A DNA stretch of 64,000 bases. Source: a virus. Lineage: Duplodnaviria > Heunggongvirae > Uroviricota > Caudoviricetes. Shown in pieces: positions 26,692 to 59,483 of this stretch. Under the pieces are notes generated by a model. It was given only the letters and a program-made list of their open reading frames with translations, was not told the DNA's origin and searched no databases. Both the position numbers and the translations under genes were made by a program. The DNA lies in IMG/VR virus record IMGVR_UViG_2926661365_000002; one strand, written 5' to 3'. Each line of letters opens with the position of its first letter. Position 1 is the first letter of the stretch.

Positions 26692-26826
26692 AATGGCCCC
26701 GCATCCGTCCGTCTCGCTCGCCCTCGCCTGCCTGCCGATCATGGCCCTCGTCCTGCTCATGGACACGCCCGTCGGCACCATTGCCGAAGGCCTGGCCCGT
26801 ATCGTCTACGCGCTCGCCGCCCGCTA
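26692..26826 (+). CDS. Small hydrophobic ORF (44 aa)
   Basis: MAPHPSVSLALACLPIMALVLLMDTP... The ATG is close to the upstream stop. It ends immediately before the first TAACCCGCAACCATGC motif. Confidence 0.2.
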
Positions 26827-26859
26827 ACCCGCAACCATGCGAAAAAGGAGATCCGCCCC

Positions 26860-27069
26860 ATGCCACGGGTGAAGTCCGCCTATGCCCCCGACGACCGTCA
26901 CCGTCAGGTCGCGCCCCTGCTCGATCCGCACTATGACGACGGCCTCGACCTCGACCTCGACGCCTTCGTCTCGCTCGCCCTCCCGCGCGCATCCGACCGG
27001 CTGGCCTATGCCGCCACGCTTCTGGCCGAGGACGGCACCCCCTGCCTCCGCCTGTCCTCGATCGGTTGA
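26860..27069 (+). CDS. Small hypothetical protein (69 aa)
   Basis: An AAAAAGGAG RBS and the start-associated motif lie upstream. The ORF is in frame with the listed 26443 ORF. Confidence 0.35.
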   Translation: MPRVKSAYAPDDRHRQVAPLLDPHYDDGLDLDLDAFVSLALPRASDRLAYAATLLAEDGTPCLRLSSIG

Positions 27070-27077
27070 GGTGCGCC

Positions 27078-27320
27078 ATGGTCCGCCTCGACCCGCAATC
27101 CCCCGCCGTGCGCACCATCTCCCAGTGGCAAGCCGCCGCCCCCGCCCTCGGTGTCCGCACATGGCAAGGCGCAATGCGCCGCTCCGCCCTCGCCAATGGC
27201 CAAGCCATCGCGATGCTGTCCACCGACGGCGCAATCATCATGGATCGCGACGAGTCCTCCGCCACGCGCACCAGCACCCGCGTCCTGGCCCCGTCAGAAG
27301 TCCGGTGGATGCGCCCGTGA
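27078..27320 (+). CDS. Small hypothetical protein
   Basis: GAGGTG RBS. Stop-start overlap with the next gene. Confidence 0.3.
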   Translation: MVRLDPQSPAVRTISQWQAAAPALGVRTWQGAMRRSALANGQAIAMLSTDGAIIMDRDESSATRTSTRVLAPSEVRWMRP

Positions 27321-27631
27321 TCCGCCCCGCCCCGATCACGACCATGGCGCTGATTATCTTCGCCATCGTCCGCCTCGCGCCCGCCCCGACGGTCGCTGAC
27401 ACGGGCAAGCCCTTCGGCGCCCCGCACCCCGTCAAATCCGCGCCCGTGGCCTCTGCGCCTGCGCCCGTGGTCGACGAGTGGGCCGCATACATCCCAAAGC
27501 TCGCCCCCGTGCCGCCTCGCCGCCCCAAACCGGCCAAGCCGCGCACCCGTCGCAAGCCCACGCCCCGCCCCCTGCCGATCGGCCGCGTGGCGGAGCCCGT
27601 CGCCTTCACGTTCTCGATTTCGATCCGGTGA
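27317..27631 (+). CDS. Hypothetical protein with N-terminal hydrophobic segment and Pro/Lys/Arg-rich C-terminus
   Basis: GTGA overlap start. ALIIFAIVRLAPAP is followed by PKPAKPRTRRKPTPRP. Confidence 0.3.
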   Translation: MIRPAPITTMALIIFAIVRLAPAPTVADTGKPFGAPHPVKSAPVASAPAPVVDEWAAYIPKLAPVPPRRPKPAKPRTRRKPTPRPLPIGRVAEPVAFTFSISIR

Positions 27632-27634
27632 CCC

Positions 27635-27877
27635 ATGGCCTTCACCGCCATCGAAAACATGAGGGTCGGCTATCTCGTCGGGTTCGAAGACCGAGAGAGC
27701 AACAGATACATCATCTTTGACCCCCGGGATCGCGGCTTCACCCTCTACACGGGCCGATACGGGCACGGATGCAATCCCATCACAGGACCGCGCGCCCGCC
27801 CCTACATCGACAAGCTCACCCCCGAACAAATCGCCCTCTGCACCGCCGCATCACTCTTGCGAAAGGACTCCCCATGA
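27635..27877 (+). CDS. Small paralog-family protein (member 1)
   Basis: 80 aa. Core DRGFTLYT and C-terminus LTPEQIALCTAASLL match the family consensus. Confidence 0.45.
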   Translation: MAFTAIENMRVGYLVGFEDRESNRYIIFDPRDRGFTLYTGRYGHGCNPITGPRARPYIDKLTPEQIALCTAASLLRKDSP

Positions 27878-28107
27878 CCTTCAACGACGCCCACGCCGCC
27901 CACGCCGCCGCTGACGAGCGCTGGATGGCCGAGATCCGCGCCGCCTACCCTCGCGAGTGGGCCGGTGACGTCCGTTACACCGACCGCGCCCAGGGTGAAG
28001 AGGGCAGCCCGTTGCGCGCCGCCTATGAGGAGTATCAGCGCACCCGCCTGACCTTCGAGGCCGCGCTCGCCGTCGCCTACCCGTCCGCCTGCCAGCCCGC
28101 CGCATGA
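27874..28107 (+). CDS. Small hypothetical protein
   Basis: ATGA overlap with the upstream gene. Confidence 0.35.
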   Translation: MTFNDAHAAHAAADERWMAEIRAAYPREWAGDVRYTDRAQGEEGSPLRAAYEEYQRTRLTFEAALAVAYPSACQPAA

Positions 28108-28364
28108 TCATGGCCAAGACCCGCGCAAAGAGCCCCACATCCCTGGCCTCGAAGCTCGCCGCTCTGCGCCCCGGAGAGACCATGTATCTCGACGACCCGC
28201 GCGAACACAGCACCCCCTTGGATCGCCAAGTTCAGGCGATGGCCGTCAAATCGGGCAGCGGTGACCGCTTCATCACCGCGCGCATGGTCGCCGTGCAGGC
28301 ATCGCCCGCCGCAGCCGTCCCGATCCTCGCAATCACCAAGGTCGGCCTGCCCGACCCAGACTGA
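28104..28364 (+). CDS. Small hypothetical protein (possible degenerate family member)
   Basis: 86 aa. A cccgccgcATGATCATGG motif precedes it. It has DRFITARM and a C-terminus AAAVPILAITKVGL. Confidence 0.4.
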   Translation: MIMAKTRAKSPTSLASKLAALRPGETMYLDDPREHSTPLDRQVQAMAVKSGSGDRFITARMVAVQASPAAAVPILAITKVGLPDPD

Positions 28365-28374
28365 CCCGCCACCT

Positions 28375-29340
28375 ATGGCACCCATGGAGACCGACATGAT
28401 CGACACCTCGCCCGCCGCGCCCCGCCTCGACGTGCGCCTGCCCTTCTCCGGGTTCTACGAGACCGTCTGGTCGCACGAGCTGGACCACGAGGAGAGTTCC
28501 TTCGTCGAGTACCGCACCGAAAACCATGACAAGAGCGACAAGGAGCAGGAGGCATGGTGGCCCGAGCGCCTGCGCCTCGACGCGGAAAAGCTCCACGAGA
28601 TCCTGTCGAAGGTCACCGACCAGCATGCCGCCCGCGAGGCCATCGCCAAGGATTTCGTGCCGACGTTCGACGCGATCCTCGGCGAGGCCATGGGCCTGTC
28701 CGTCCCGACCGAGGGCACCCGCTACTGCTACAAGACGCAAACCATGGTGCCGCATACCTACGACCGCGACACCGTGGGGCTGGAGCTCAAGACCTTCACC
28801 TCCGCGCGTGGCAACTACACCACCCAGACCGACTGGATACACGCGACCATCCCCCTGCCCGTGGTCGAGCTGCTCTTCATCCGGTCCCGCATCGACTGGC
28901 ACAAGCGCCTGCGCGAGCTGATCGACGACGACGGCCACGACCCCGACGAAGAGCTGGCCTCCCCGCTGACCGACTGGTGCCAAAACAGTTGCTGGCGCCT
29001 GCTCACCGCCTGCCTGCCCCTCTACGGCGTCGAGGAGATCGAGAACCAGTGCGCCACCGCCATGGCCGAAGAGTCAGAGTTTCACCGCGCCTGGAGCAAC
29101 GCCGTCGACTGGAAAAAGTTTGAGGCTGAGCGCACCGAGGCCCGCGCCGAGCCGCTTGCAGACTGGATCGAGGATGACCTTGAGGCCGTCGCACACTGGC
29201 GCGTCAACCACCCCGACGAGTTCGCCGAGATCGTCGCCTCTGTCCCGCATGCCTTCTACCCGTTCGCAGAGGCTCTGTCCCTCGGCACCCTCTCCTACCA
29301 CTGCCCGGAGACACCCGACCTGTTCGAGTGCGCCGCCTAA
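28375..29340 (+). CDS. Hypothetical protein (about 321 aa)
   Basis: Starts at ATG 28375, after the motif cccgccacctATGG. Acidic, with no family recognised. Confidence 0.5.
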   Translation: MAPMETDMIDTSPAAPRLDVRLPFSGFYETVWSHELDHEESSFVEYRTENHDKSDKEQEAWWPERLRLDAEKLHEILSKVTDQHAAREAIAKDFVPTFDAILGEAMGLSVPTEGTRYCYKTQTMVPHTYDRDTVGLELKTFTSARGNYTTQTDWIHATIPLPVVELLFIRSRIDWHKRLRELIDDDGHDPDEELASPLTDWCQNSCWRLLTACLPLYGVEEIENQCATAMAEESEFHRAWSNAVDWKKFEAERTEARAEPLADWIEDDLEAVAHWRVNHPDEFAEIVASVPHAFYPFAEALSLGTLSYHCPETPDLFECAA

Positions 29341-29371
29341 CCCGCCACCCATGGCAAACGAGGAAACACCC

Positions 29372-29587
29372 ATGCCTGTTGAGATCCTGCCCGCCCGCCT
29401 TCAAGTCGAGGGACGCCCGACCGTCGTCCGGCTCGAGCCCATGACCAAGGCACCGCCCGCCGCCCCGCTTCGCACCCTCGTCCTGATGGTGGCGATCCTC
29501 GTCCTCGTCCTGGCCGCAGCCCTCGCCGCCTGCGCCGGCTACATCATCGAGTGGGCCGAGCGCTCCGCCTATTCGGAGCAGGCATGA
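29372..29587 (+). CDS. Small membrane protein (a start at motif ATG 29351 is also possible, in frame)
   Basis: Contains the TM segment LRTLVLMVAILVLVLAAALAACAGYII. Preceded by taacccgccacccATGG. Confidence 0.4.
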   Translation: MPVEILPARLQVEGRPTVVRLEPMTKAPPAAPLRTLVLMVAILVLVLAAALAACAGYIIEWAERSAYSEQA

Positions 29588-31149
29588 CCATGAACGCTAT
29601 CGTCACCCGCCAAACCGTCGAGCAGATCTGCGCCTTCCGCGACCAAGCAATCAAGCAATTCAGCAACGCATTCGAGAAGATCGAGGAGGCGTCCGACGCC
29701 ATCCGCCAAGCCCATAAGCTCTGGGAAGGGGCCGCTCCGGGCAAGCCCGGCTATTACTCGAACCTCAATCAGGAGGTGGAGTCGTTCTCGAATGCGGTGA
29801 GCCTGCCCGATCGCGACATCTACCTGCGCACAGCCAAGCGCCTGATCGACGTTACCGTGTGGACCCATGTGATCCAGCACACCGGCATTGAAAACCTGAT
29901 GGACAAGGAAGCGAAGGATCAGCTTCGATCGCAGATGCGGTATGTCCCCGAGCGCCGCGGCCGAGATGGCGAGATCATCAATCAGGATGAGATCGACCGC
30001 ATGCTTCCCGAGGTCACCCCCGAGAATGTCTATGCCACGCTCGAACGTTTTCAGGCGGACGCGGAGATGATCTTCCGGCGCGGCATCGTCAACGTCTTCT
30101 CGAAGCTCGACCGCCGCTTCCGCTCACACGACGGGTTCAAGGTCGGCTCACGCATGATCCTCGACTACCTCTGCAACAGCGACGGTTACTTCAGTACAAC
30201 GAGCGACCGCGCCGACCGTCTGAGTGACGTCGAGCGGGCGTTCCGAGTGCTGGAGGGGAACGCCGATCACGCCGGGTTCTACGGCATTGCCAATAAGATC
30301 TATCGCGAGCGGCGGAACTTCGAACGCGCCCGGTCTGAGCATGAGAACGCATACTTCAAGGTGCGCATCTTCATGAACGGCAACGCCCACCTCTGGTTTA
30401 CTCGCAAGGATCTGGTGGAAAGGATCAACAAGATCCTCGCCGAGCACTACGGGGAAACGCTGGGCGATGGCATGACCAAGGAAGCCGATCCGCTCAAGGA
30501 TGTGAAGACCACACCCGCCAAGCGTTATGGCTTCTTCCCCACGCCGGACGCGGCAGCCGAAGAAGTCTTCCGCAAGCTCAACACTTGGCAGTCCGCAACC
30601 AACGATCGCCTGCGCATCCTCGAACCGTCCGCCGGCACCGGCCAACTGGCCCGCCGCGCAGCCACCGTCGGCAACGATCTGGCAGAGTGGCAGCGCGAGA
30701 AGTTCAAGGACCACCGCTTCGACCACGCCGTCGACTGCATCGAGATCCAGCCGCACCTGGCCCACCAGCTGGAGGCGGAAGGCATCTACAATAGGGTGAC
30801 CTGCGCTGACTTCCTCACCGTCAAGCCCGACCCGTCCCGCCTTTACGACCGAGTGGTGATGAACCCGCCGTTCGACCGCGAGCGTGACATAGACCATGTG
30901 ATGCACGCTTTCGAGTTCCTGAAACCTGAGGGCCAGCTCGTCGCCATCATGTCGGCGGGCACCGAGTTTCGCGAGACGAAGAAGTCGATCGCCTTCCGCG
31001 ACCTGATGGAAAAGCTCGGCGCAGAATGGTCAGACCTACCCGCTGGCTCGTTCGCAGAGTCCGGCACCTACTGCAACACCGGCATCCTTGTGGTCTGGAA
31101 GAGCGGCAAGCCGCGTCGTTACGGTCGCCCCACCTGGGAAAAGCTCTAA
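29584..31149 (+). CDS. N6-adenine DNA methyltransferase (gamma-type motif order) fused to an approximately 340-aa N-terminal domain of unknown function
   Basis: FFPTP (motif X-like), EPSAGTGQL (motif I, FxGxG) and MNPPF (motif IV, NPPF) lie in the C-terminal approximately 180 aa. The N-terminal approximately 340 aa is unassigned. Start overlaps the previous stop (ATGA). Confidence 0.8.
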   Translation: MTMNAIVTRQTVEQICAFRDQAIKQFSNAFEKIEEASDAIRQAHKLWEGAAPGKPGYYSNLNQEVESFSNAVSLPDRDIYLRTAKRLIDVTVWTHVIQHTGIENLMDKEAKDQLRSQMRYVPERRGRDGEIINQDEIDRMLPEVTPENVYATLERFQADAEMIFRRGIVNVFSKLDRRFRSHDGFKVGSRMILDYLCNSDGYFSTTSDRADRLSDVERAFRVLEGNADHAGFYGIANKIYRERRNFERARSEHENAYFKVRIFMNGNAHLWFTRKDLVERINKILAEHYGETLGDGMTKEADPLKDVKTTPAKRYGFFPTPDAAAEEVFRKLNTWQSATNDRLRILEPSAGTGQLARRAATVGNDLAEWQREKFKDHRFDHAVDCIEIQPHLAHQLEAEGIYNRVTCADFLTVKPDPSRLYDRVVMNPPFDRERDIDHVMHAFEFLKPEGQLVAIMSAGTEFRETKKSIAFRDLMEKLGAEWSDLPAGSFAESGTYCNTGILVVWKSGKPRRYGRPTWEKL

Positions 31150-31321
31150 CCCTTTCAGCCGCAGCCGTGCCCCCACACGGTTGCCCCATGCGGCTGTCTA
31201 TCGTCCCACTAAACAGGAGGTGAACCATGTAGCCCACCGGCAGGAACAACGCGCTTCCCTGCCTGCCCTCGCAAGGGGAAGCGCCCCCCACTACCCGCAA
31301 ACATGCACAAGAGAGACACCC

Positions 31322-32080
31322 ATGGCCCAGTTCATCGGCGAAGTTATCGTCCGCGCCAAGATCACCACCGCCACCCATGACATCGCCACCCAGATCACCA
31401 AGGATCTCGCCGCCGACGTTGCCGCTGAGGTCGACCTGATCGGCCTCGTCCATGAGGTGAAGCCCGGCGACGTCTACCCAGACAAGGGTGAGAAGGCCCG
31501 CTTCGCCGACACCCAGAGCTTCGACTATGCCCAGGTTGAGGGCGCCCTCTGCGTGTTCGAGCACATCATCGAGAGCCGCGACGAGGAACCCTACAAGGAA
31601 CTGCTCGAAGGGTTCGGATGGTCAGCCATGCGAATGGTCGCGGTCCAAGCCGGCGACATCTGCGACCGCGCCTTCAAGCACATGGAGTCTCTCGGCTACG
31701 AGTTCACCGGCGCTTACGACTGGGAGTTCGTGCCCGATGTTTGCCGCCACCTCGACTGGAACGCGCTGTTCAATGACAACCAGTACAACAATGGCCGCTA
31801 CGACCCGAACATCGACGAGCTGGTCAACGTCCTGATCACGGCTGAGATGGCCACGGTCGAGCCGGGCAAGCGCCTCTTCCACAAGGAGGAGATGACGGCC
31901 GACGACTACATCAAGGCCTGCCGCGCCGAGGCCGAGCGCCAGTGGGGATACGGCGACCTCGTGTCCGACCACCCCGAGCACATCACCGCCGCAATGGAGG
32001 CAGGCCAGACCCCGACCGAGATCACCTATGAACTCGGCAAGCAGTTCGACCTCACCCCGCGCGACGCCTACCTCGGCTGA
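31322..32080 (+). CDS. Hypothetical protein (252 aa)
   Basis: Preceded by the motif ctacccgcaaacatgc and an AGAGAGA RBS. Confidence 0.5.
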   Translation: MAQFIGEVIVRAKITTATHDIATQITKDLAADVAAEVDLIGLVHEVKPGDVYPDKGEKARFADTQSFDYAQVEGALCVFEHIIESRDEEPYKELLEGFGWSAMRMVAVQAGDICDRAFKHMESLGYEFTGAYDWEFVPDVCRHLDWNALFNDNQYNNGRYDPNIDELVNVLITAEMATVEPGKRLFHKEEMTADDYIKACRAEAERQWGYGDLVSDHPEHITAAMEAGQTPTEITYELGKQFDLTPRDAYLG

Positions 32081-32110
32081 CCCCGCAACCATGCGCCCCC
32101 GGAGACCACC

Positions 32111-32851
32111 ATGAACATCGCAGTATCGATCGCCATCCCGGACGACGAGGAAAAGCAGACCGAGCTCAGCTTCGACGAACTGTCCGACCGGGCCAAGGAG
32201 AAGGCCCGCGACAACTACCGCCAGAACTACCCCGACGATGGCTGGTGGGACTCGAGCTACGAGGACTTCGACAAGATCGCCGACATGATGGGGATCTGCA
32301 TCGCCACCAAGCAGGTGCCCCTCATGAACGGCAAGAACAAGAGCGTCCCTGCCATCTACTTCTCCGGCTTCTGGTGTCAGGGTGACGGCGCCTGTTTCGA
32401 GGGCAACTGGTACCCCGAGAAAGATCCGCTCGCCTCGCTCACCAAGGTGATGGGCCACGCCCCCAACGACGCCGATCTGCACGAGATCGCCTTCGGCCTG
32501 GCCCACCTGTCCGAGCGGTGCAACCAGCTCATCCCCGAAGCTCGCGTGAAGGTCGAGCACAATAGCCGGTACTATCACTCCAACAGCGTGAGCTACGACA
32601 TCGACCTGCCGATGCCCATCCATATCCAGGAAGGCAACGAGCTGCAGCACATGGTCTTCGATGGCCTCCGCACCAAGCTCGACCTCGACGACGAGGCATT
32701 CGAGACCGAGGTCAGCGACCTCCTCCGCCGCTTCATGGACTGGATGTATGGCCTGCTCGAGGAGGAACACGAGCACCTCACCTCCGACGAGGTCATCGAC
32801 CAGTATCTCGAAGAGATGAAGTTCGATGAGGACGGGGAGGCAATCTATTGA
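32111..32851 (+). CDS. Highly acidic hypothetical protein (DNA-mimic / anti-restriction candidate)
   Basis: 246 aa, strongly enriched in D/E with aromatic residues (DDGWWDSSYEDFDKIADMMG, FSGFWCQGDGACFEGNWYPE). Preceded by tgaccccgcaaccatgc. Confidence 0.5.
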   Translation: MNIAVSIAIPDDEEKQTELSFDELSDRAKEKARDNYRQNYPDDGWWDSSYEDFDKIADMMGICIATKQVPLMNGKNKSVPAIYFSGFWCQGDGACFEGNWYPEKDPLASLTKVMGHAPNDADLHEIAFGLAHLSERCNQLIPEARVKVEHNSRYYHSNSVSYDIDLPMPIHIQEGNELQHMVFDGLRTKLDLDDEAFETEVSDLLRRFMDWMYGLLEEEHEHLTSDEVIDQYLEEMKFDEDGEAIY

Positions 32852-33162
32852 GAGACGAGCGCCTGAAACAACTGCTCGTCTACAATAAGGAGCTGTCGAC
32901 GAGAGCCCGCCTCGTGCCCGGCGCGGATGACATGCAGCAGTGGGTGTTCCGCCCGGCTGGGCGTTACCGCAACCGCTTGTTCTTCGTCTGGATCAGCGAC
33001 ACGCGGGAGGTCGGCGGCACTCGATGCCGCGATGATCACACCGACCCCACCGAGCCATGGAAGTGGCATGCCTACCTTCCGAAGAAATTCCTGCGGGTCA
33101 TGCTCGACCTAGCCCCGCAGGAAGAGGTGGCCGAGGCCATCGCCAAGACCCTCATCAACTGA
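32848..33162 (+). CDS. Hypothetical protein (TTG start)
   Basis: 104 aa. TTGA overlap with the upstream gene. Confidence 0.35.
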   Translation: MRDERLKQLLVYNKELSTRARLVPGADDMQQWVFRPAGRYRNRLFFVWISDTREVGGTRCRDDHTDPTEPWKWHAYLPKKFLRVMLDLAPQEEVAEAIAKTLIN

Positions 33163-33199
33163 CCCCGCCAACCATGGCACAACACAGGAGACTGCACCC

Positions 33200-34105
33200 A
33201 TGAACGCAATGACCAAGATCGTTTCGACCTCCGCCACCCTCTCGACCCGCGCGCTCCTCGTCTCGCTGAGCATCAGCCAGTGGTCCGGACGGCGGCTCGA
33301 TCGGGCGATCACCAAGGAAGTCAACGACAAGCACAGCGCTGCGGCCGACGCCTCCCGCGTCAACAAGCTGCTGCTGCCACCCGACGCCCTCGCCGGCATC
33401 ACCAAGGTGGTCAGCGCCACGCGCTCCGGCTTCCTGGAACGCACCCTGCCGTGGCTCGACGACGGGCAGCGTGTCATGTCCTCCGATGCCTACCTCAACC
33501 ACACCAGCTGGATCCGCAAGCAGCGGGCGCAGTTCGAGGACAAGGTCGAAGAGTTCCTCGCCGACTACGACAAGCATGTGAACGATGCGAAGAAGCGGCT
33601 GGGCTCGATGTTCGATCAGAACGACTACCCCACCAAGGCTGAGCTGCGCGCCAAGTTCTCGATGTCGACCAACGTCCTGCCGGTACCGACCTCGAACGAC
33701 TTCCGCGCTGAGATGACCGAGGCCCAGGCTGACCTGATCCGCCGCCAGATCGAGGACACCGTGACCGAGGCCACCTCGATCGCAATCAAGGACATCTACC
33801 GCCGGGTGCATGACGTGGCCGAGCGCATGGTCGACAGGCTCAACGCTTACAAGCCCGCCGCCAAGCCGGGCGACAAGACCGAGGGCCAGTTCCGCGACTC
33901 CCTCGTCGGCAACGTCCGGGATCTCATCGGCATCCTGCCCTCGCTCAACATCCTTGGCGACCCGCAGCTCGCAGCCATGGCCGACAAGCTCAAGCCGCTG
34001 GCCGAGCACGACGCCGACGATCTCCGCAGCAGCGCCGACCTCCGCCGCAGCGTGGCAGCCGAGGCCAAGGCCATCCTCGATCAGGTCGCCGACTTCCTCG
34101 CGTGA
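33200..34105 (+). CDS. DUF3150-like hypothetical protein
   Basis: 301 aa. The N-terminus ...LSTRALLVSLSISQWSGRRLDRAITKEV resembles DUF3150 from memory. Confidence 0.45.
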   Translation: MNAMTKIVSTSATLSTRALLVSLSISQWSGRRLDRAITKEVNDKHSAAADASRVNKLLLPPDALAGITKVVSATRSGFLERTLPWLDDGQRVMSSDAYLNHTSWIRKQRAQFEDKVEEFLADYDKHVNDAKKRLGSMFDQNDYPTKAELRAKFSMSTNVLPVPTSNDFRAEMTEAQADLIRRQIEDTVTEATSIAIKDIYRRVHDVAERMVDRLNAYKPAAKPGDKTEGQFRDSLVGNVRDLIGILPSLNILGDPQLAAMADKLKPLAEHDADDLRSSADLRRSVAAEAKAILDQVADFLA

Positions 34106-34350
34106 CCGATCGCTTCCTGTATCAGCACATCGCCTCTCGGTTCTCGAACAGAATCGAGTGGGCCTTCTACGACAGGCTACGGACGGAGCGGGTGTTCCTG
34201 GTCTTTGACCTGCGCACCCGCACCCTCGAAGCGAAGAGGTCCGGCAACGGCCCGATGATCCCGGCCCCCGCATGGACTGACGAGATGGAAGCCGCGCTCC
34301 CACCCGAAGCCATGGCCGAGGCCATCGGCATAGCGATCACCATGAAATGA
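34102..34350 (+). CDS. Small hypothetical protein (GTG start)
   Basis: GTGA overlap with the upstream gene. Confidence 0.3.
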   Translation: MTDRFLYQHIASRFSNRIEWAFYDRLRTERVFLVFDLRTRTLEAKRSGNGPMIPAPAWTDEMEAALPPEAMAEAIGIAITMK

Positions 34351-34362
34351 AAGGACACAACC

Positions 34363-34848
34363 ATGGGCGACAGAGTGTCTGTCTACCTGAGACTAGGCGG
34401 CTGCCTGCAGTCGATCGAAGAGGCGGAGGAATTGATCGAAGCGCTGGCGCTCGACACCAACCTCGACACCAACGAGGAGGCGATGGCCCTGTTCAAGGAG
34501 GCGATCGCCACCGAAGACCCGATCGAAGCGGAAGCATATGAGGTTGACAGCGGCCAGCTAGAAAACATCGAGCCCTTCGTCCGAGACCGCAAGCACCTGT
34601 CCTGCGAGATCAGCTTCGGCAGAGGCGGCGGCTTCGACGCCGGCACCACCGTCATCCACGAGGGCGAGACGCACACCTTCCCCGATGGCAACACCGTCCC
34701 GCGCGATGCGGTCATCAAAGCACTGGACGAAGGCGGCGAGCAGGCTGTCCGCGATCTCATCAAGCGGACGCACTTCCTCCAGCACGAATGCGTCCCTCCC
34801 CTCACCGGTTCCGATGAGGTCCGGGGCTGGCTCTCCATCCTCGGCTGA
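34363..34848 (+). CDS. Acidic hypothetical protein
   Basis: 161 aa. Confidence 0.45.
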   Translation: MGDRVSVYLRLGGCLQSIEEAEELIEALALDTNLDTNEEAMALFKEAIATEDPIEAEAYEVDSGQLENIEPFVRDRKHLSCEISFGRGGGFDAGTTVIHEGETHTFPDGNTVPRDAVIKALDEGGEQAVRDLIKRTHFLQHECVPPLTGSDEVRGWLSILG

Positions 34849-34851
34849 GCC

Positions 34852-35211
34852 ATGGCAACCGGCATTCTCTATGGGCCGTATGCCCATCAGTTTACCGGGG
34901 ACAGGCTGAAATTCTGGGTACCAATGCGGAAGGACGACGACGCCAACATCAAGCGTTACGAAGTCCTCATCCTTCCCAATGGCCAGATGTCGACACGACA
35001 GCGCCCGATATTCGACGGCCCAGCGCCGTCACATCAGGCCCAGTTCTTCGACTTCCTGCCACCCGATGACCTCTCCCACCTTCGAAGCGATTGCTACCCT
35101 CGCTTCCCCCGGGACCGCATCCACGATGCGATCCTGCCCCTCCTCACGGACGAGCAAGCCGCCGTCCTTCTCTGCTATCGGCTCATCGGTGTGCCGAAGA
35201 AGTTCAAGTAA
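34852..35211 (+). CDS. Hypothetical protein
   Basis: 119 aa. Confidence 0.45.
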   Translation: MATGILYGPYAHQFTGDRLKFWVPMRKDDDANIKRYEVLILPNGQMSTRQRPIFDGPAPSHQAQFFDFLPPDDLSHLRSDCYPRFPRDRIHDAILPLLTDEQAAVLLCYRLIGVPKKFK

Positions 35212-35244
35212 CCCCGCAATCATGCGAACCAACAGGAGACCAGC

Positions 35245-36234: not shown

Positions 36235-36237
36235 GCC

Positions 36238-36591: not shown

Positions 36592-36594
36592 CCC

Positions 36595-37346: not shown

Positions 37347-37349
37347 CCC

Positions 37350-38549: not shown

Positions 38550-38588
38550 CCCTCTGCAACCCGCCACTGATGGCAACAGGAGACCACC

Positions 38589-38954: not shown

Positions 38955-38955
38955 C

Positions 38956-40245: not shown

Positions 40246-40246
40246 C

Positions 40247-41134: not shown

Positions 41135-41400
41135 TGGGTCTCGGTCCTGCCCCTCCGCCTCCGCCATCTGATGGCCCCTCGCGCCCCTTCAAGGTGAAGG
41201 ACATCCAACTCGGCCGCTTGCGCCGGAATGCTGCTGTCTTCTTCTACCCGTCCAGAAGAGCGTTCGTCTTGTACTGGGAAAACTGGGTTTCAACTAGGAT
41301 GCAGAGGCCCCTCACCGCCGAGGAGCTTCCCGAATACCTCACGAATGAGGAGATCGCACGATGCCTCGCCGCAGCTATTACGGCGAGCGCCACCCCTTAA
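41134..41400 (+). CDS. Small paralog-family protein (member 7)
   Basis: Poly-Pro N-terminus; SRRAFVLYW core; C-terminus LTNEEIARCLAAAITA. Confidence 0.45.
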   Translation: MGLGPAPPPPPSDGPSRPFKVKDIQLGRLRRNAAVFFYPSRRAFVLYWENWVSTRMQRPLTAEELPEYLTNEEIARCLAAAITASATP

Positions 41401-41425
41401 CCCGCAACCATGCACAGGAGAGACC

Positions 41426-42271: not shown

Positions 42272-42555
42272 CCAGCAACAATGTGAAACTGACCATCCAC
42301 AAAGGGGAGAAGCCCGTGCGCATCCATCCGAAAGGCCCCGAGCTTCCGTTTCACCAGATCAGCTACGACCCGATCGGCCGCACGTTCTCTTGGGAAGTCA
42401 AGGTGAAGGGCAGGCCACCGTCCCTTAACAACCCAACATCGAACGAAGGCCCGTTCCACCTCTACAAGCAGCTGACCCCGGAGGAGATCACCCGCTACAT
42501 CGACGACGAAACCATGGCCGAATGTTTGGCCATGTCCCTGACCCAGGCCCGCTAA
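42268..42555 (+). CDS. Small paralog-family protein (member 11)
   Basis: GRTFSWEV core; C-terminus LTPEEITRYIDDETMAECLAMSLTQAR. Confidence 0.45.
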   Translation: MTSNNVKLTIHKGEKPVRIHPKGPELPFHQISYDPIGRTFSWEVKVKGRPPSLNNPTSNEGPFHLYKQLTPEEITRYIDDETMAECLAMSLTQAR

Positions 42556-42573
42556 CCCAGCGGGCCTTTTTCT
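42538..42573 (+). terminator. Rho-independent terminator closing the paralog cluster
   Basis: GGCCCGCT aaccc AGCGGGCC stem followed by TTTTTCTTTTTC. Confidence 0.55.
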
Positions 42574-42592
42574 TTTTCAACCAGAGGAGAGC

Positions 42593-44394: not shown

Positions 44395-44454
44395 TTGACA
44401 AGTTGCGGCTCGTCCCTGCAATAGCGGGGGCGAGCACAACCAGAAAGGATTACC

Positions 44455-45813: not shown

Positions 45814-45815
45814 TG

Positions 45816-51153: not shown

Positions 51154-51642
51154 TCAGTTGCCCGGGCCTTCCGTGGCGATCGCCGCCTTGAGATCCTGGT
51201 TGATGAAGGCGTAGCCATCGTTGTTGCCACGCTGCCAGGCATCGTAGCCCTCGGAGCCGGCGGCATAGGGGTTGAGGTTTGCTTTGCGCAGCATCCCGGC
51301 GAGGCGCCCCTCTTCATAGGCACGGTCGGCTTCGGTGGCGCCGTCGCCATTGATGAGGCTCATCTGCCGTCCGATGCGGTGGCCGAAGAGTTTCGCGATG
51401 CGGATCTTCCTCTCGAAGTCGGCGATGACCTGCCCGACGTCCTTCTCCTCGAGGGACATCGCGAACTCGATGTCCTTCTTGGACCAGCCGAGATCCTTGA
51501 GGCGCTTGTAGATGGCGTTCATCCCACCCTTCGTGCCGGCCATCTCGGACTGAGCCTTCTTGATGTCGGCGTAGCCCTTGAGGAACTGCTGGTCCTCGTA
51601 GTTCTCCTGCTGGGTCTTCTCGTTATGCGTACTCGTCATCAT
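51154..51642 (-). CDS. Hypothetical protein
   Basis: 162 aa. Confidence 0.45.
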   Translation of the reverse strand: MMTSTHNEKTQQENYEDQQFLKGYADIKKAQSEMAGTKGGMNAIYKRLKDLGWSKKDIEFAMSLEEKDVGQVIADFERKIRIAKLFGHRIGRQMSLINGDGATEADRAYEEGRLAGMLRKANLNPYAAGSEGYDAWQRGNNDGYAFINQDLKAAIATEGPGN

Positions 51643-51662: not shown

Positions 51663-52016
51663 TTAGAGGCCGAGGCGATTGCGCGCTTCGGCGATGGCGA
51701 GCCCTCCTTTGAGGAGCTCGAAATACTCGGGCTGGAGATGCGCGGGGATGGAAAAGCCGCGGCGGATGTCCTGCTGGTGAGACACCTGGGACTTGCGAAC
51801 GTCGTCGACGCGACGTTCCCGTTGCTGGCCCCTGAGGTTCTTGTGAACGCGCTTGGCAAAGGCCGGCGGGATGCCAAGGTCGGACATCCGCTTTTGGACC
51901 GCGCTGCCACTCACGCCCAATTCAACGGCGATCTTGCGCATGGTGAGGCCGGAGGCATTCAGCCCGCGAAGCTTGCGATCGAGCTCCGAAGTCCAGTTCC
52001 ACTTGTGAGCGCCCAT
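51663..52016 (-). CDS. GcrA-like regulator (N-terminal DNA-binding domain)
   Basis: KWNWTSELDRKLRGLNASGLTMRKIAVELGVSGSAVQKRMSDLGI aligns with the GcrA N-terminal pattern WTDE..L..L...GLS...IA..LG...AV..K...LG. Confidence 0.5.
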   Translation of the reverse strand: MGAHKWNWTSELDRKLRGLNASGLTMRKIAVELGVSGSAVQKRMSDLGIPPAFAKRVHKNLRGQQRERRVDDVRKSQVSHQQDIRRGFSIPAHLQPEYFELLKGGLAIAEARNRLGL

Positions 52017-52521: not shown

Positions 52522-53223
52522 ATGAAACAAGCCAAACCAGCAGACCGCCTTAGAGAGGCGAGGAAATCCGCGGGCTTTGCCAGCGCAGCCGAGGCCGCGC
52601 GCCGCATCGGCGTGAGCCCAATAACCTATACGGCTCATGAGAATGGCACCCGCGAGTACGACCGCGAGGCCTGCCTCAATTACGCGCGCCGGTTCCATGT
52701 CAGCCCAGCCTGGCTGATGTTCGGCGCGGACGCTTCCGGCCCGGCCCCCACCGAAGAGAATAACATTCCGCTCGTGGACTTTACGCCGGGTGTCGCAGAC
52801 CGCACGCCGCGAATGCTCAATGAGTATGCTGTTCTCGACAGCAACATGATCGCTGACTTCACCGTCGACACGCTGCGACTGCCGTCCGCGTTCCTCGATC
52901 GGCAGATCTATTCGAAGCCGACATCCCTATTCGCAATGGAGTGGAAGCCCAGTTCCCGCGAATCATCGCGCGGTTCGGAATTTCGTGCCGGCGAAATCCT
53001 GCTGGTCAGATCGCAGAACCACGGCCCTCCGCGAGGAGAACGCTACCTGGTTGCAGACGGCATTTTTCCGGATGTGTTCGCTATTGAGTTGCACTCAAGG
53101 ACGGATGAGGGCGCTTTTGTCGTGCGCGCTTTTTCCTCAACCGGGGGTGATAAGGAAATAATCAAACCGCTCAGTGAGATTAAGATCTTGGGACAGGTGG
53201 TAGCCACCATCAAACCCCTCTGA
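52522..53223 (+). CDS. CI-like repressor (HTH + S24/LexA-like C-terminal domain)
   Basis: AAGGAG RBS. N-terminal HTH REARKSAGFASAAEAARRIGVSPITYTAHENG. The C-terminal segment ...SEIKILGQVVATI resembles the S24 fold. Confidence 0.65.
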   Translation: MKQAKPADRLREARKSAGFASAAEAARRIGVSPITYTAHENGTREYDREACLNYARRFHVSPAWLMFGADASGPAPTEENNIPLVDFTPGVADRTPRMLNEYAVLDSNMIADFTVDTLRLPSAFLDRQIYSKPTSLFAMEWKPSSRESSRGSEFRAGEILLVRSQNHGPPRGERYLVADGIFPDVFAIELHSRTDEGAFVVRAFSSTGGDKEIIKPLSEIKILGQVVATIKPL

Positions 53224-53601: not shown

Positions 53602-53639
53602 TATTCCCACATCGATACGTCTTGTGTCAATCGCTTCGT

Positions 53640-56220: not shown

Positions 56221-57356
56221 TGTCGCTCGTCTACGATATGTTCAAGCAAACCGACGGCACCTATCAGCTGCCCGACGGCGTCTACATCGAGCTGCCGGAG
56301 GATATCTATCACTCCGACACGGCACTCGGCTCCACCTCGATCAAGCAACTGGCGAAGAACCCGCCCAAGTGGCAGTACGACCGGCTCCGCCCCCGCAAGG
56401 AGGTCACGCCCGAGCACTTCATCTGGGGCCGCGCCTTCCACTGCCGGATCCTGGAGGGCAAGGAAGAGTTCGAGCGTCGCTATGCCAAGCCGCCGGTACC
56501 GGGTGACTACCCGAAGGCGCTCAACACGACCGACCAGATCAAGGACTTCTTGAAGGAGAACGGGCAGAAGCTCACCGGCAACAAGGGCGAGCTGATCGCC
56601 CGCGCCCGGGATGTCGACGGCTGCCCGCCCTTCTTCGACGACATCCTGCGCGACTGGTATGCCGAGCATCAGGGCCACGAGGATCTGACCGATCGCCAGA
56701 TGCAGGAAATTGAGGACGCGGTGACCATCATGGCCCGCGACCCCATCCTCTCCAGCGTCATGCAGGCTGGCACCCTGATGTCGGGTGCGTCCGAGCTGTC
56801 GATCTTCTCGACGGATGAGAACGGCATCCGCCGCAAGGGCCGCATCGACTACGCCCTGCCCCCGGCCGGCAGCCGCACGAAGTCCCTGTCGATCGACCTG
56901 AAACATTTCACGACGTTTCGGGAGGGCGACAACGAGGCGGCTGCCACGCACAAGATCTATGGCGAATGCTACGACGTCCAGGGCGCCTACTACCTGGACC
57001 AGATCAAGTCCGCCCGCCAGCTCGCGGACGCCGGCTGCATCTATGGCGGCGACGACGCTGCCATCGAGACGGTCAAGGCCTTCCTCGAGGCCCAGGACAT
57101 GGACTGGGTCTGGATCTTCATCCGCCGCGACGCCGGCATGATCCCCGTAATCATCTCGGTCGATACCCTCGACCCGATGTTCGACCACGGTCGCACGATC
57201 GTGGTCGATGCCTTGGACCGCTATCGCGAGTTCGTCTCGCGGTGCGGCCCCACTGAATTGTGGTCGGACCCACCCAAGGTGCCCCTCCGCCTCAATCAGT
57301 CTGCCTTGCCATCCTACAACCGAGGAGTTCTCTGTGAGCAACCAGCTAACCGTTAA
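56220..57356 (+). CDS. PD-(D/E)xK family exonuclease (YqaJ / lambda-Exo functional analog candidate)
   Basis: ...GRIDYAL...SIDLKHF supplies the D ... (D/E)xK core. It lies upstream of RecT. Confidence 0.55.
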   Translation: MSLVYDMFKQTDGTYQLPDGVYIELPEDIYHSDTALGSTSIKQLAKNPPKWQYDRLRPRKEVTPEHFIWGRAFHCRILEGKEEFERRYAKPPVPGDYPKALNTTDQIKDFLKENGQKLTGNKGELIARARDVDGCPPFFDDILRDWYAEHQGHEDLTDRQMQEIEDAVTIMARDPILSSVMQAGTLMSGASELSIFSTDENGIRRKGRIDYALPPAGSRTKSLSIDLKHFTTFREGDNEAAATHKIYGECYDVQGAYYLDQIKSARQLADAGCIYGGDDAAIETVKAFLEAQDMDWVWIFIRRDAGMIPVIISVDTLDPMFDHGRTIVVDALDRYREFVSRCGPTELWSDPPKVPLRLNQSALPSYNRGVLCEQPANR

Positions 57357-58497
57357 CGCCGCCACGATGTTCGAGCAGTTCCGACCGGACCTGCTCCCCA
57401 TCATGGCCGAGACTGGGCAGTCCTTCGACCGCCTCAAGTCGACCTTCTCCATCGCGGTTCAGCAGAACCCGGACATCCTCAAATGCACACCGGAATCGCT
57501 GCGCCGCGAGATCTCCAAGTGCGCCGTTGACGGCCTTGTGCCGGACAGCAAGGAAGCCGTGCTCCTGCCGTACCTCGACAACAAGTCGAAGGAATACATC
57601 GCGAACTACCAGCCGATGGTCTACGGCATCATCAAGCGGATGAAGGAACTGGGCGGCGTCTTCCAGATCGTCTGCAACCTCGTCTACAAGACCGACCTCT
57701 TCTCCATGAACGAGGCCGACCCGGACAGCCTCGCGCACAAGCAGGCCGACCCCTTCGGTACCGATCGCGGTGACGTCGTCGGCGGCTACGTCATCTTCCG
57801 CGACGAGCACAAGCGCCTGATGCACTTCGAGAAGATGTCCCGCGAGGACTTCGACCGGGTGCGCGCAGCCTCCAAGGCCCCGGACAGCCCCGCCTGGAAG
57901 CATTGGTTCGAGGAGATGTGCAAGAAAGCCGTGCTCCGGCGCGGTGCGAAATACATCTCGATCAACAACGACAAGATCCGCGCGCTGATCGAGCGCCAGG
58001 ACACCATGTTCGACTTCCAGGAGAAGCCGAAGGCCGAGCGCGTAGACCCGTTCTCTGGCGCGACGATCGACGGGACGGTGGTTGATGCCGCCCCGGCCTC
58101 GCGAACGCAGCAGGCGGGCTCCGGTGCCTCGGAGAAGACCGCTCCTGCCAAGAAGGAACTGGCGGAGAAGCCGCCGGAGTTCCCCTCAGACCTCGACCTT
58201 CTCCCCGGCGACATCGACTCCCTCAAGGAGGCAACCGAGAAGGTTCTCAAGATCGCCCTCGACAAGAAGCTCGACGCTCCTGGTCGCCGTGGCGTCCTCA
58301 AGGGAATGCCGGAAACCTGGAAGCCTGTGCTTCCGGAATACCTGCATCCCTTGTTGAAAACGATGATCGACGTGACCGACTGGGCAATCCTTCGGGATGC
58401 TGCAGGCCTGCCGTGGGCAGGTGAACACGCGATGTTCGTTCACAAGATGAAAGAGCTGCTCGGTGTCGAGAAGCTCAACATCGGCAAGTACCCCTGA
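57334..58497 (+). CDS. recT: RecT-family single-strand annealing protein
   Basis: ESLRREISKCAVDGLVPDSKEAVLLPYLDNKSKEYIANYQPMVYGIIKRMKELGG matches the RecT core. GTG start with a GAGGAG RBS. Confidence 0.7.
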   Translation: MSNQLTVNAATMFEQFRPDLLPIMAETGQSFDRLKSTFSIAVQQNPDILKCTPESLRREISKCAVDGLVPDSKEAVLLPYLDNKSKEYIANYQPMVYGIIKRMKELGGVFQIVCNLVYKTDLFSMNEADPDSLAHKQADPFGTDRGDVVGGYVIFRDEHKRLMHFEKMSREDFDRVRAASKAPDSPAWKHWFEEMCKKAVLRRGAKYISINNDKIRALIERQDTMFDFQEKPKAERVDPFSGATIDGTVVDAAPASRTQQAGSGASEKTAPAKKELAEKPPEFPSDLDLLPGDIDSLKEATEKVLKIALDKKLDAPGRRGVLKGMPETWKPVLPEYLHPLLKTMIDVTDWAILRDAAGLPWAGEHAMFVHKMKELLGVEKLNIGKYP

Positions 58498-58513
58498 AAC
58501 CAACCCTCCAACT

Positions 58514-59416
58514 ATGGAACCTAACATGCGCATTCTTTCTATCCTCGCAGGCCCGTTCTTGACCGTGACCGGTGTCGCCCTCGTCGTCCTCTGGTGGTTC
58601 GGCACCTACACGATTGACGAAGGCGAGCGCGGCGTCCTGCTCTACAACGGTGCAGTCGTCGGCGTGGCCGAGCCCGGCCGCGGCTTCCAGAACCCGTTCT
58701 TCGGGGCCGTCCGCCGCATCTCGCTGCAGGATGTTACCCGCCGCTACGAGAAGGTTCCCGTCTACTCGCGAGACCAGCAGACAGCGGAACTGACCATATC
58801 GGTCACATACGTGGTCCCGGCCGGGGGCGTCACCGACCTCTATTCGACTTACAAGTCAGTCGAGAACATGGAGGCCCGCCTCATCGACCGTAACATCAGC
58901 GAGCCTGCCGAGATCGTCTTCGGCCAGTTCAATGCCATCGCTGCCGTGCAAGAACGCGCCCGCCTCTCCGCCGAGGTTTCGGCAGCGATCACCAAGGCCA
59001 TCAAGGGACCGGTCAACATCAAGTCGGTCCAGGTCGAGAACATCGATTTCTCGGCGACCTATGAGACGTCGATCGAGCAGCGTATGCAGGCCGAGGTGGA
59101 GGTGCAGAGGCTCCAGCAGAACGCCGCGCGTGAAAAGGTGCAAGCCGAAATCACCGTGACCAAAGCCAAGGCAGATGCCGACAGCGCGAAAGCCAAGGCA
59201 GATGCGGAATCCTATGCAACCTTGGTCAACGCCCAGGCGCAGGCCAAGGCCGTTGGGCTCGCCGGCCAGGCGGAAGCCGATGCCATGGCGGCGAAAGGTA
59301 AGGCCCTGCGCGAAAACGCCGGACTTATCGAGCTGACCACCGTCCAGCGTTGGAACGGCCAGTTGCCGGCCACCATGGTCCCCAACGCGACGCTCCCCTT
59401 CCTGCCCATCAAGTGA
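58514..59416 (+). CDS. SPFH/band-7 (prohibitin/HflC-like) domain membrane protein
   Basis: N-terminal TM segment, SPFH core GERGVLLYNGAVVGVAEPGRGFQNPFF, and an Ala/Lys/Gln-rich coiled-coil tail. Confidence 0.7.
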   Translation: MEPNMRILSILAGPFLTVTGVALVVLWWFGTYTIDEGERGVLLYNGAVVGVAEPGRGFQNPFFGAVRRISLQDVTRRYEKVPVYSRDQQTAELTISVTYVVPAGGVTDLYSTYKSVENMEARLIDRNISEPAEIVFGQFNAIAAVQERARLSAEVSAAITKAIKGPVNIKSVQVENIDFSATYETSIEQRMQAEVEVQRLQQNAAREKVQAEITVTKAKADADSAKAKADAESYATLVNAQAQAKAVGLAGQAEADAMAAKGKALRENAGLIELTTVQRWNGQLPATMVPNATLPFLPIK

Positions 59417-59483
59417 TTAACCCGGGGCGCCCTCACCGGGGCGCTCCACCCACCCGCCGCAATCATGCAGCCAAGGATACCCA

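Follow-up and report, generated by a model that had tools for sequence, protein, structure and literature searches.

Recurrence of the stem-loop in the accessory gene block

The window analysed here, a 64,000-nt stretch of a tailed-phage genome (Caudoviricetes; IMG/VR record IMGVR_UViG_2926661365_000002), carries 12 copies and one degenerate copy of a short start-associated stem-loop, mostly ahead of genes of the plus-strand accessory block (block B, 25792–42555). The element is a 12-nt hairpin, CC-N1N2CA-AYYA-TGN2′N1′-A, which is flanked by CC(C) on its 5′ side and by A on its 3′ side. It is followed by an A/C spacer without G/U (1–7 nt in the window, 1–11 nt across relatives), by the Shine-Dalgarno (SD) sequence GGAGA and by the start codon. 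The stem shows compensatory base changes, the place beside the SD sequence is fixed, and homology between related phages breaks at the hairpin. We tentatively regard the element as a putative RNA operator that travels with the genes it precedes.

The core AACCCGCMAYCATG was found six times with at most two mismatches, compared to 1.6 matches expected, and none of 100 shuffled sequences reached this number. The view of a linear 16-mer motif was replaced by that of a hairpin, because stems of four types (CGCA/TGCG, GCCA/TGGC, GGCA/TGCC and TCCA/TGGA) exist side by side in the window. The structural pattern CC-NNCA-[AC][ACT][CT]A-TGNN with a complementary second pair gave 11 matches on the plus strand and none on the minus strand; over the two strands together 0.29 matches were expected from first-order Markov simulations, none of which gave more than 3. 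Furthermore, a covariance model (R1), built on 89 sites from the window and its relatives and run over the window with filters off, yielded 12 matches at 20.1–28.5 bits (E ≤ 0.005), all on the plus strand; the next best match had 14.2 bits. Eleven of these copies are located within the accessory block at 25.8–42.6 kb and one at 58.5 kb, and the degenerate copy is found at 59.46 kb.

An initial annotation of the sequence had listed a recurring start-associated motif at 11 sites, nine of which (26826, 28363, 29337, 31293, 32079, 33160, 35206, 38557 and 41397) were confirmed as copies. The site at 59448 corresponds to the degenerate copy (hairpin kept, 5′ CC replaced by GC, local match of 11.8 bits), and at 28094 neither a hairpin nor an R1 match was found. 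Three true copies (25756, 26494, 58501) were missing from that list. The annotation had allowed for a motif that merely follows base composition or is absent from relatives; the element occurs far above chance and is conserved in related phages.

For the description of the element 96 non-redundant sites were collected by a scan which required CC on the 5′ side, C-G and A-U as the two pairs next to the loop, and A as the last loop base. A relaxed scan gave no credible variants of the two loop-proximal pairs. The loop reads A-Y-Y-A in 74 of the 96 sites, the base directly 3′ of the stem is A, and the spacer is nearly devoid of G and T. Upstream of position −4 the site alignment shows no conservation out to −60. 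No match to Rfam was obtained at gathering thresholds over the whole window, or at E ≤ 1 over 25.6–35.4 kb, and literature searches with the literal sequence and with keywords gave no description of this element. The motif core can also be written CCCGCAAC(C/T)ATGCG. Its octamer CCCGCAAC also occurs, within a small CGC/GCG hairpin, in bacterial 16S rRNA around positions 1090–1100 (GUCCCGCAACGAGCGC); this could be chance or rRNA mimicry.

Compensatory changes in the stem

The 96-site scan left the complementarity of the two outer stem pairs free. Stem position 2 is nevertheless paired in 94 of the sites (G-C 69, C-G 20, U-A 5), and the outermost position in 64 (CG 31, GC 28, UA 5). In an ungapped alignment 91.9% of the stem cells are paired vs. 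73.4% in shuffles, none of 500 of which reached the observed value, and the paired share falls to 8–42% when the register of the partner is slid. The retrieval pattern had fixed one site per IMG/VR locus as CGCA...TGC; the GCCA, GGCA, GTCA, TGCA, CTCA and TCCA sites are all independent of it.

Double compensatory changes are present at orthologous junctions. Copies ahead of the DUF3150 gene were found in 10 relatives, and the stems at these junctions are GCCA/TGGC (eight phages), CGCA/TGCG, CGCA/TGCA and CTCA/TGAG (one each). Orthologues of the first gene of the block are preceded by copies in eight relatives, with the stems GGCA/TGCC, CGCA/TGCG and GCCA/TGGC, and the junctions of the AAA ATPase orthologues show CGCA/TGCG, GTCA/TGAC and GCCA/TGGC. 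The covariation points to a folded single strand. On aligned leaders RNAalifold predicts the 4-bp helix and no other. In the window the hairpin is the minimum free energy (MFE) or centroid structure at 11 of the 13 sites, among them copies 1, 4, 5, 7, 10 and 12 (MFE) and copy 3 (centroid), and the SD sequence is usually unpaired.

Two further structures were considered and rejected. A structure of the antisense strand, in which 28 outermost C.A combinations would be read as U.G, is better explained if these sites form a 3-bp stem bordered by the conserved CCC and A. Sequestration of the SD sequence by the 5′ CC would allow only 2 bp, and the flank lacks U.

Position relative to start codons and transcription units

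Although the R1 model has no SD columns, an SD sequence and a start codon are found within 36 nt downstream of 100 of the 105 non-redundant R1 matches from the window and its relatives. Of the other five, two are false positives in a repeat protein, one is cut off by the end of its locus, one is an orphan and one is the copy at 58501. The SD sequence, usually GGAGA, starts 3–7 nt past the stem in 86 of the 96 sites, and the start codon follows the ATG of the motif by 16–29 nt. The hairpin lies at about −17 to −28 from the start codon and 5′ of the SD sequence, with its 3′ end 11–24 nt (mode 15–17 nt) from the start. This position is the 5′ edge of the mRNA held by the initiating 30S subunit.

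The element abuts the SD sequence even in long intergenic gaps, and its distance from the upstream stop codon is free (2–164 nt across relatives). The motif had been described as beginning at or just after the upstream stop codon, which is correct for the window but is not a property of the element; the adjacency arises because this genome is compact. Seven of the true intergenic gaps of block B are 25–39 nt long and hold little beyond CCC, hairpin, spacer and SD sequence. An association with stop codons, with termination-reinitiation or with read-through was rejected on the basis of the free stop distance and since only three of eight tight junctions in the window are in frame. Genes without the element overlap the stop codon of the previous gene with their start codon, so that the element marks the first cistron of each translational unit.

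Gaps of similar length in the late block are without the element. R1 found no copies in the late block (23.7 kb) or the replication block, and all 12 copies lie on the coding strand of the non-structural plus-strand blocks, in agreement with the earlier suggestion that a specific subset of plus-strand genes is marked. A sigma-70 promoter was also rejected: no hexamer is conserved out to −60, and no promoter-like site was found in the block vs. 2.8 expected.

All copies of the window are on the plus strand. Copy 1 (25756..25775; CC-GGCA-ATCA-TGCC-A, 4 nt, AGGAA; R1 27.2 bits) precedes ATG 25792 of the first gene of the block, and copy 2 (26494..26513; CC-GGCA-ATTA-TGCC, 5 nt, GGAGA; 26.4 bits) precedes ATG 26531. 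They are followed by copy 3 (26824..26843; TAA-CC-CGCA-ACCA-TGCG-A, AGGAG; 26.2 bits) ahead of ATG 26860, copy 4 (28362..28381; TGA-CCC-GCCA-CCTA-TGGC-A, GGAGA; 20.2 bits) ahead of ATG 28396, and copy 5 (29338..29357; TAA-CCC-GCCA-CCCA-TGGC-A, GAGGA; 23.4 bits) ahead of ATG 29372. Copy 6 (31290..31309; CC-CGCA-AACA-TGCA with a 3-bp stem then A, GAGAG; 21.2 bits; ATG 31322) is situated at the SD-proximal end of a 172-nt gap, 3′ of a GC-rich hairpin at 31251–31284. Copy 7 (32078..32097; TGA-CCC-CGCA-ACCA-TGCG, GGAGA; 25.1 bits) belongs to ATG 32111, copy 8 (33161..33180; TGA-CCCC-GCCA-ACCA-TGGC-A, AGGAG; 24.6 bits) to ATG 33200 of the DUF3150 gene, and copy 9 (35209..35228; TAA-CCC-CGCA-ATCA-TGCG-A, AGGAG), with 28.5 bits the best of the window, to ATG 35245 of the MoxR-type AAA gene. 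Copy 10 (38557..38576; CCC-GCCA-CTGA-TGGC-A, AGGAG; 20.1 bits) precedes a TTG start at 38589, and copy 11 (41397..41416; TAA-CC-CGCA-ACCA-TGCA, AGGAG; 24.9 bits) precedes ATG 41426.

Outside the main block, copy 12 (58501..58520; CCC-TCCA-ACTA-TGGA-A; 22.9 bits), a site absent from the R1 training set, has ATG 58526 of an SPFH/band-7 gene (Pfam Band_7) 7 nt past its stem and no separate SD sequence. The degenerate copy 13 (59452..59471; GC-CGCA-ATCA-TGCA, AGGAT; ATG 59484) carries GC in place of the 5′ CC and gives a local R1 match of 11.8 bits over 59458–59469; a GC-rich hairpin lies upstream of it at 59424–59447.

Distribution among related phages

The element was found in at least 15 related phages with more than 100 natural variants. 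Within one locus of a relative (loci are numbered with the prefix L) all copies lie on one strand, inside the homologue of block B, with the exception of L019, which has one copy per strand. The adjoining terminase, portal and capsid genes of the relatives carry no copies, and no matches were obtained in motif-less relatives, one plasmid and one distant phage (about 108 kb in total). The relatives of the window are prophages of Hoeflea and Phyllobacteriaceae as well as IMG/VR contigs; none of the cultured phages is close to it at the DNA level.

Matches in L012 and L113 were discarded as false positives in a tandem-repeat protein gene. On the L012 contig (35% G+C) the R1 matches at 3570–3950 fall inside coding tandem repeats (...IAPAIMQLGE...), and they show the limit of a 20-nt model. 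Pattern matches in L008, L011, L014, L015, L020, L022, L027, L031, L032 and L037 were chance or unrelated. A pattern scan of metagenomes gave only about seven true loci and was swamped by one unrelated, abundant coding sequence. The latter contains CCCGCAACCATGCGACAGAGGGAGA, is nearly invariant and occurs in many metagenome assemblies (L041–L160), human gut included.

In the motif-less Roseibium prophages L004 and L005, intrinsic terminators with a U-tract are located 20–30 nt before many SD sequences at the block-B junctions. These terminators imply control of the same block by read-through or antitermination.

A distant relative, Planktothrix phage Pra-JY27 (L161, PP438419.1), has a DUF3150 protein with 33% identity and genes of the size of AAA, DUF3150 and VWA in the same order. 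It has no copy of the hairpin of the window and carries about 20 copies of GGTTCA-GNC-TGAACC vs. 0.6 expected (600–28300). This hairpin lies right after or across stop codons, 5–18 nt before the SD sequence, and is often followed by CCCGCAAC-GGAG. It shares with the element of the window a 5′ CC and the loop-proximal CA...UG pairs. It thus seems that the block carries stereotyped junction hairpins in several lineages, each lineage with a sequence of its own. Of six variants of the Pra-JY27 hairpin with a single mismatch, four are G.T wobbles on the coding strand. A second, REP-like repeat of this phage consists of CCCTCGCG(Y)CCGC, a variable GC-rich hairpin and GCGTGGCGATGGCCAGCC and lies upstream of the small hairpin; intergenic units are found at 565–654, 1003–1093, 1376–1463, 2540–2601 and 5048–5138.

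Homology breakpoints at the hairpin

The gene content of block B is highly mosaic around a few core genes. The IMG/VR phages L016, L030 and L025 are 90–100% identical over long stretches, which are broken by replaced or missing genes. In base-level alignments the identity begins exactly at CC and hairpin at four junctions (L016:4371/L030:6370, L016:6029/L030:7816, L016:7668/L025:7846 and L030:6370/L025:5568), and it stops within or right after the hairpin at two (L016:5817/L030:7816 and L016:6631/L025:7159). Among these events is an indel of a single gene with a copy of the element on either side. As the breakpoints coincide with the hairpin, the hairpin unit appears to be a joint of cassette exchange, a role which fits the mosaic content of the block and the presence of a RecT/exonuclease pair. 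Each cassette bears a unit of about 25 nt, made up of hairpin, spacer and SD sequence, at its 5′ edge, and this unit would be the joint for exchange, gain and loss of genes. The likeness to lambdoid gene-boundary sequences drawn in the initial annotation is apt in this respect, the mosaic breakpoints falling on the motif.

Comparison with known phage elements

The start-associated sequences (SAS) of Cluster K mycobacteriophages, to which the motif had also been compared, are similar in concept and differ in consensus. The SAS is a linear 13-bp sequence (GGGATAGGAGCCC, at most two deviations) that contains the SD core and lies 3–7 bp from the start codon; about 11–19 copies in one orientation are restricted to non-structural genes (PMC3203893). 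The extended SAS (ESAS) are imperfect inverted repeats of 17 bp, and RNA pairing finds no support in the way they vary (PMC3203893). Like the SAS, the present element occurs in about a dozen short copies (12–13, all on the plus strand), in one orientation and only at non-structural genes; it is conserved across related phages before different gene families and absent from most other phages. In contrast to the SAS, the SD sequence is a separate, downstream GGAGA, the consensus is CC-NNCA-AYYA-TGNN-A, and the 3′ end of the hairpin is 11–24 nt from the start. In contrast to the ESAS, the arms comprise 4 nt and their variation supports pairing. Furthermore, the hosts are Alphaproteobacteria rather than Actinobacteria, and there is no sequence similarity to either repeat.

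The PeSL units of T4-type phages combine a strong sigma-70-like early promoter with a terminator stem-loop (Arbiol et al. 2010, PMC2839356). In both systems small conserved units flank accessory genes in plastic regions, and the breakpoints of indels and replacements lie in the units. Unlike PeSL, the element has no promoter hexamers, its stem of 3–4 bp lacks a U-tract (−1.7 to −5 kcal/mol), and it is firmly tied to the SD sequence. Stoperators of Cluster A phages are asymmetric sites of 13–14 nt in short intergenic spaces, with an orientation that follows transcription (PMC9283540). The monomeric immunity repressor binds them as duplex DNA. They occur throughout the genome, in early as well as late operons, one of them overlaps the early promoter, and internal covariation is absent. 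The present copies are found only in the 25.8–41.4 kb block, plus two at 58.5–59.5 kb, and behave as hairpins; the covariation argues against duplex read-out. The element belongs to none of these three groups, and we class it with the start-associated regulatory repeats of phages.

A functional likeness may exist to the coat-protein operator of MS2 and Qbeta and to T4 RegA, where one protein reads a hairpin or short sequence in the initiation region and controls ribosome loading; RegA controls many early mRNAs at once. The loop AYYA fits the MS2 loop rule ANYA, of which AUCA is a tight-binding variant, although this resemblance would be functional only. There is no bulged A, and the hairpin is positioned upstream of the SD sequence and not over the start codon. 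A coat-protein or RegA homologue was not found. T7 likewise has about ten stereotyped intergenic hairpins in long polycistronic transcripts. These RNase III sites are irregular hairpins of about 50 nt within early and late mRNAs, are cut by a host enzyme specific for double strands, and in some cases affect downstream translation. In contrast, RNase III could not act on a stem of 4 bp.

Three other systems are not matched. Lambda nut has a 5-bp stem, a GNRA-like pentaloop and an adjacent boxA and occurs once per early operon. The present element has a 4-nt AYYA loop and occurs a dozen times per operon, and nothing resembling boxA was seen when the sites were aligned. The N4 hairpin promoters have stems of 5–7 bp and a 3-nt loop and are used by the virion RNA polymerase. 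Here the stem comprises 3–4 bp and the loop 4 nt, and by Pfam no RNA polymerase was found among the proteins scanned, including all large ones. Integron attC sites are imperfect palindromes of 57–141 nt with R and L boxes recognised by IntI, compared to a 12-nt hairpin in the window, where no tyrosine recombinase was detected by Pfam among the proteins scanned.

Possible functions of the element

We favour, at a probability somewhat short of even, a function of the stem-loop on the transcript: it would be an RNA operator for translation control which is carried along with each cassette and which also serves as recombination joint. The transcript and initiation are favoured because of the strict sense orientation and the fixed place beside the SD sequence even in long gaps. 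Recognition by a trans-acting factor is suggested since loop, closing pairs and flanks are conserved in a thermodynamically weak hairpin. From these patterns in the sequence we infer action at the RNA level, a factor acting in trans and an effect on translation. A single factor, probably a phage-encoded or host RNA-binding protein, would read the loop with the two stem pairs next to it as well as the flanking 5′ CC and 3′ A, and would tune ribosome loading, by repression or activation, on all marked cistrons jointly, which would amount to a hairpin-based translational regulon.

Several observations weigh against a translational operator. The hairpin is weak (−1.7 to −5 kcal/mol) with fold z-scores that are not significant, and about 30% of the copies have only three stem pairs. 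No G-U pair exists among about 100 sites, so that covariation does not separate RNA from single-stranded DNA or formally identify the strand. Roseibium relatives share the core genes (37–59% identity) and lack copies; the element is thus dispensable for these genes. In addition, no candidate RNA-binding protein emerged among the block proteins from Pfam, PHROGs, PADLOC and PDB sequence searches, which were largely uninformative. The same searches gave no sigma factor, NusG or recombinase candidates.

A role in transcription, as a phage-specific promoter or as a hairpin for pausing or factor loading in the single-stranded DNA of the bubble, is rather unlikely. Precedents are the hairpin promoters of the N4 virion RNA polymerase and the ops hairpin read by RfaH, and the distance of about 11–13 nt between loop centre and SD sequence is similar to the hairpin-to-start geometry of N4. 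Such a role would account for the strictly co-directional orientation, for the terminator-like hairpins ahead of the first copy in the window and six relatives and the GC-rich hairpins ahead of copies 6 and 13, and for a block in which no other promoter is predicted. It would also explain why every exchanged cassette has its own copy, as in the PeSL promoter cassettes (PMC2839356). A promoter, however, needs no SD spacing of 3–7 nt, which 86 of the 96 copies have, and −35 or extended −10 conservation is absent. The block also lacks internal U-tract terminators that would call for internal promoters, and a Pfam scan of most predicted open reading frames (ORFs) of the window revealed neither an RNA polymerase of the phage nor a gene for a sigma factor or a NusG-like protein. 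We consider it equally doubtful that the hairpin is a signal for RNA processing or stability, at which an endoribonuclease of host or phage cuts or which caps processed 5′ ends and so sets the half-life and translatability of each unit. About a dozen stereotyped intergenic copies per operon would suit this function, the single-stranded conserved 5′ CC, the 3′ A and the A/C spacer could be a cleavage context, and other hairpins occupy the same junctions in motif-less relatives (intrinsic terminators) and in Pra-JY27. On the other hand, a stem of 3–4 bp has neither the length for RNase III nor the strength to block exonucleases, and the tight coupling to the SD sequence instead of the upstream stop codon points to initiation rather than to 3′-end protection.

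The breakpoints within a few bases of the hairpin in L016, L030 and L025, in both directions, and the single-gene indel between two copies raise the question of whether recombination is the primary role and effects on expression are secondary. Cassette shuffling between relatives in the same infected cell would be promoted through RecT/exonuclease action on short homology or through a structure-specific recombinase; the block is highly mosaic, and the window encodes RecT and a PD-(D/E)XK exonuclease. We regard this as unlikely. Homology-driven exchange favours identity and not compensatory changes with several stem types per genome, the fixed SD spacing would go unexplained, a site-specific recombinase was not found in the window, and selection for intact genes also gathers surviving breakpoints at gene boundaries. 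A double-stranded operator of the stoperator type, where a repressor bound at each copy blocks transcription of the block in lysogens, has a very low probability in our view. The copies resemble the L5-type sites (PMC9283540) in being asymmetric, multiple, intergenic and oriented with transcription, the phage is temperate-like with CI-like HTH proteins, and the Pra-JY27 analogue is a perfect 15-bp palindrome, GGTTCAG-N-CTGAACC, like the binding site of a dimer. Yet complementarity at two free positions (94 of 96, three pair types) is unexpected for a protein reading a duplex, the conserved CA and TG are just 6 bp apart, the copies keep to one block and do not extend over early and late operons, and none overlaps a recognisable promoter.

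The least credible explanation, which we consider highly improbable, is a leader ORF that opens at the ATG of the motif and is translationally coupled to the downstream start. The initial annotation had proposed such a leader-peptide device from mini-ORFs whose TGA overlaps the start codon. While the quoted peptide strings are correct, only four of the 13 window copies give such ORFs (7–9 codons). Across relatives an ATGA overlap occurs in 18 of 96 sites, and these overlaps match the expectation for one frame in three when the second codon starts with A. The frames from the motif's ATG to the start are uniform (33/28/35 for the 96 sites, 4/4/5 in the window), with about one third of the copies in frame with the gene and another third reading past the start. 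This ATG consists of the last loop base and the first two bases of the 3′ arm; it is therefore inside the stem, and no SD sequence precedes it. The likeness of the peptides, i.e. their common RR, is GGAGA read in frame, and the mini-ORF does not explain the covariation of the stem.

Genome context

The window has a G+C content of about 63% and a tailed-phage gene set that looks complete. The late block on the minus strand (143–23704) encodes a gpA-type large terminase, a lambda-type portal, capsid, tail sheath, baseplate J/P2-I and tape measure proteins. Block B runs divergently from the packaging genes; its genes are mostly unknown and include those for a DUF4942 methyltransferase, DUF3150, a MoxR-type AAA ATPase and a DUF2201 VWA/metallopeptidase. 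The replication block on the minus strand, with DnaB, a DnaG-type primase, an MT-A70 methylase and a GcrA-like protein, is divergent from a CI-like HTH gene at 52522, and the recombination block on the plus strand comprises AAA_23, a PD-(D/E)XK exonuclease, RecT and the SPFH protein. CI-like HTH proteins at 52522–53223 and 43080–43502 make the phage temperate-like. An integrase or protelomerase was not seen among the proteins of the window.

A strong intrinsic terminator on the plus strand (42545..42577), a 9-bp stem followed by TTTTTCTTTTT, closes the motif-bearing block. It is the sole terminator-like site on this strand with a stem of more than five pairs within 23.7–43.65 kb. At the other end of the block two extra leader hairpins lie directly 5′ of copy 1 (25714..25757, plus strand), namely AAGCCCAC...GTGGGCTT at 25714–25739 and GAAGCC-AAG-GGCTTC at 25743–25757. 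An equivalent pair of a terminator-like and a second small hairpin, differing in sequence, precedes the first-gene copy in L016, L025, L023, L007, L001 and L010. The pairing of the second hairpin is kept despite sequence change (GAAGCC/GGCTTC, GAAGC/GCTTC, CGTTC/GAACG, GGTC/GACC). These hairpins may be part of a larger leader structure.

The coding strand of block B is skewed towards C over G and A over T: the GC skew is −0.05 to −0.17 over 26000–46000 and the AT skew mostly +0.1 to +0.19. The skew exceeds that of the late block, and the transcript is rich in C and poor in G. The first gene of the block (25792–26388, 198 aa) encodes a protein with an AKP-rich, histone-H1-like C-terminal tail and an N-terminal domain of phrog_1448. 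Homologues lie near one end of the record, typically within 1.8–8 kb, in T7-like phages of Pseudomonas, Ralstonia and Acinetobacter, which may be early regions, and a plasmid search with this gene gave no match. The MoxR-AAA, DUF3150 and VWA (DUF2201) triad (33200–38549 in the window) is also present on plasmid NZ_OW485604.1 (L040) of the alphaproteobacterium Rhodovastum atsumiense, where it adjoins DUF3991-toprim and ParB genes. Homologues of DUF3150 occur on plasmids in 62 records, mostly of Burkholderiaceae. An exact match to the DUF3150 protein of the window is not on record, and nothing relevant was found in the literature on DUF3150 and DUF4942.

The motif-preceded gene at 38589–38954 encodes a 121-aa protein with a C-terminal pair of CxxCxGxG zinc-finger motifs of the DnaJ/anti-TRAP type (weak Pfam match). 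A 162-aa protein (51154–51642), whose gene adjoins that of the GcrA-like protein (51663–52016) near the MT-A70 methylase gene, shows a weak motif resembling ribosome modulation factor (Pfam RMF, E = 2.8e-5, below cut-off). Both were considered as cognate proteins of the hairpin; they are marginal, and neither is supported. For the large terminase (20516–22579) the closest cultured phages are Microcystis phage Mae-JY30 (46%), Vibrio phage VP882 (37%) and Halomonas phage phiHAP-1 (33%); the latter two are linear-plasmid 'telomere' phages.

Significance

Repeats of the SAS/ESAS type have been known since 2011 without a mechanism, and the stem-loop described here is a cleaner handle on them: it is short, its compensatory pairing is clear, its geometry relative to the SD sequence is fixed, and relatives which have the same genes without the element serve as natural controls. 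It also shows at base resolution where related phages swap accessory genes and is relevant to the old question of whether conserved boundary sequences play a part in phage mosaicism. Together with a cognate binding protein, should there be one, the element would make a compact, orthogonal part for the control of expression in Alphaproteobacteria. More speculatively, and rather improbably in our estimation, temperate phages of Alphaproteobacteria might possess a cassette system of promoterless accessory genes (probably early or anti-host), in which the 12-nt hairpin at the 5′ edge of each cassette would be both the translation operator of a dedicated trans-acting regulator of the whole array and the DNA exchange site, possibly structure-aware, with lineage-specific hairpins such as GGTTCA-GNC-TGAACC of Pra-JY27 as equivalents in distant relatives. 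If true, this would be a phage counterpart of the integron logic on a far smaller signal.

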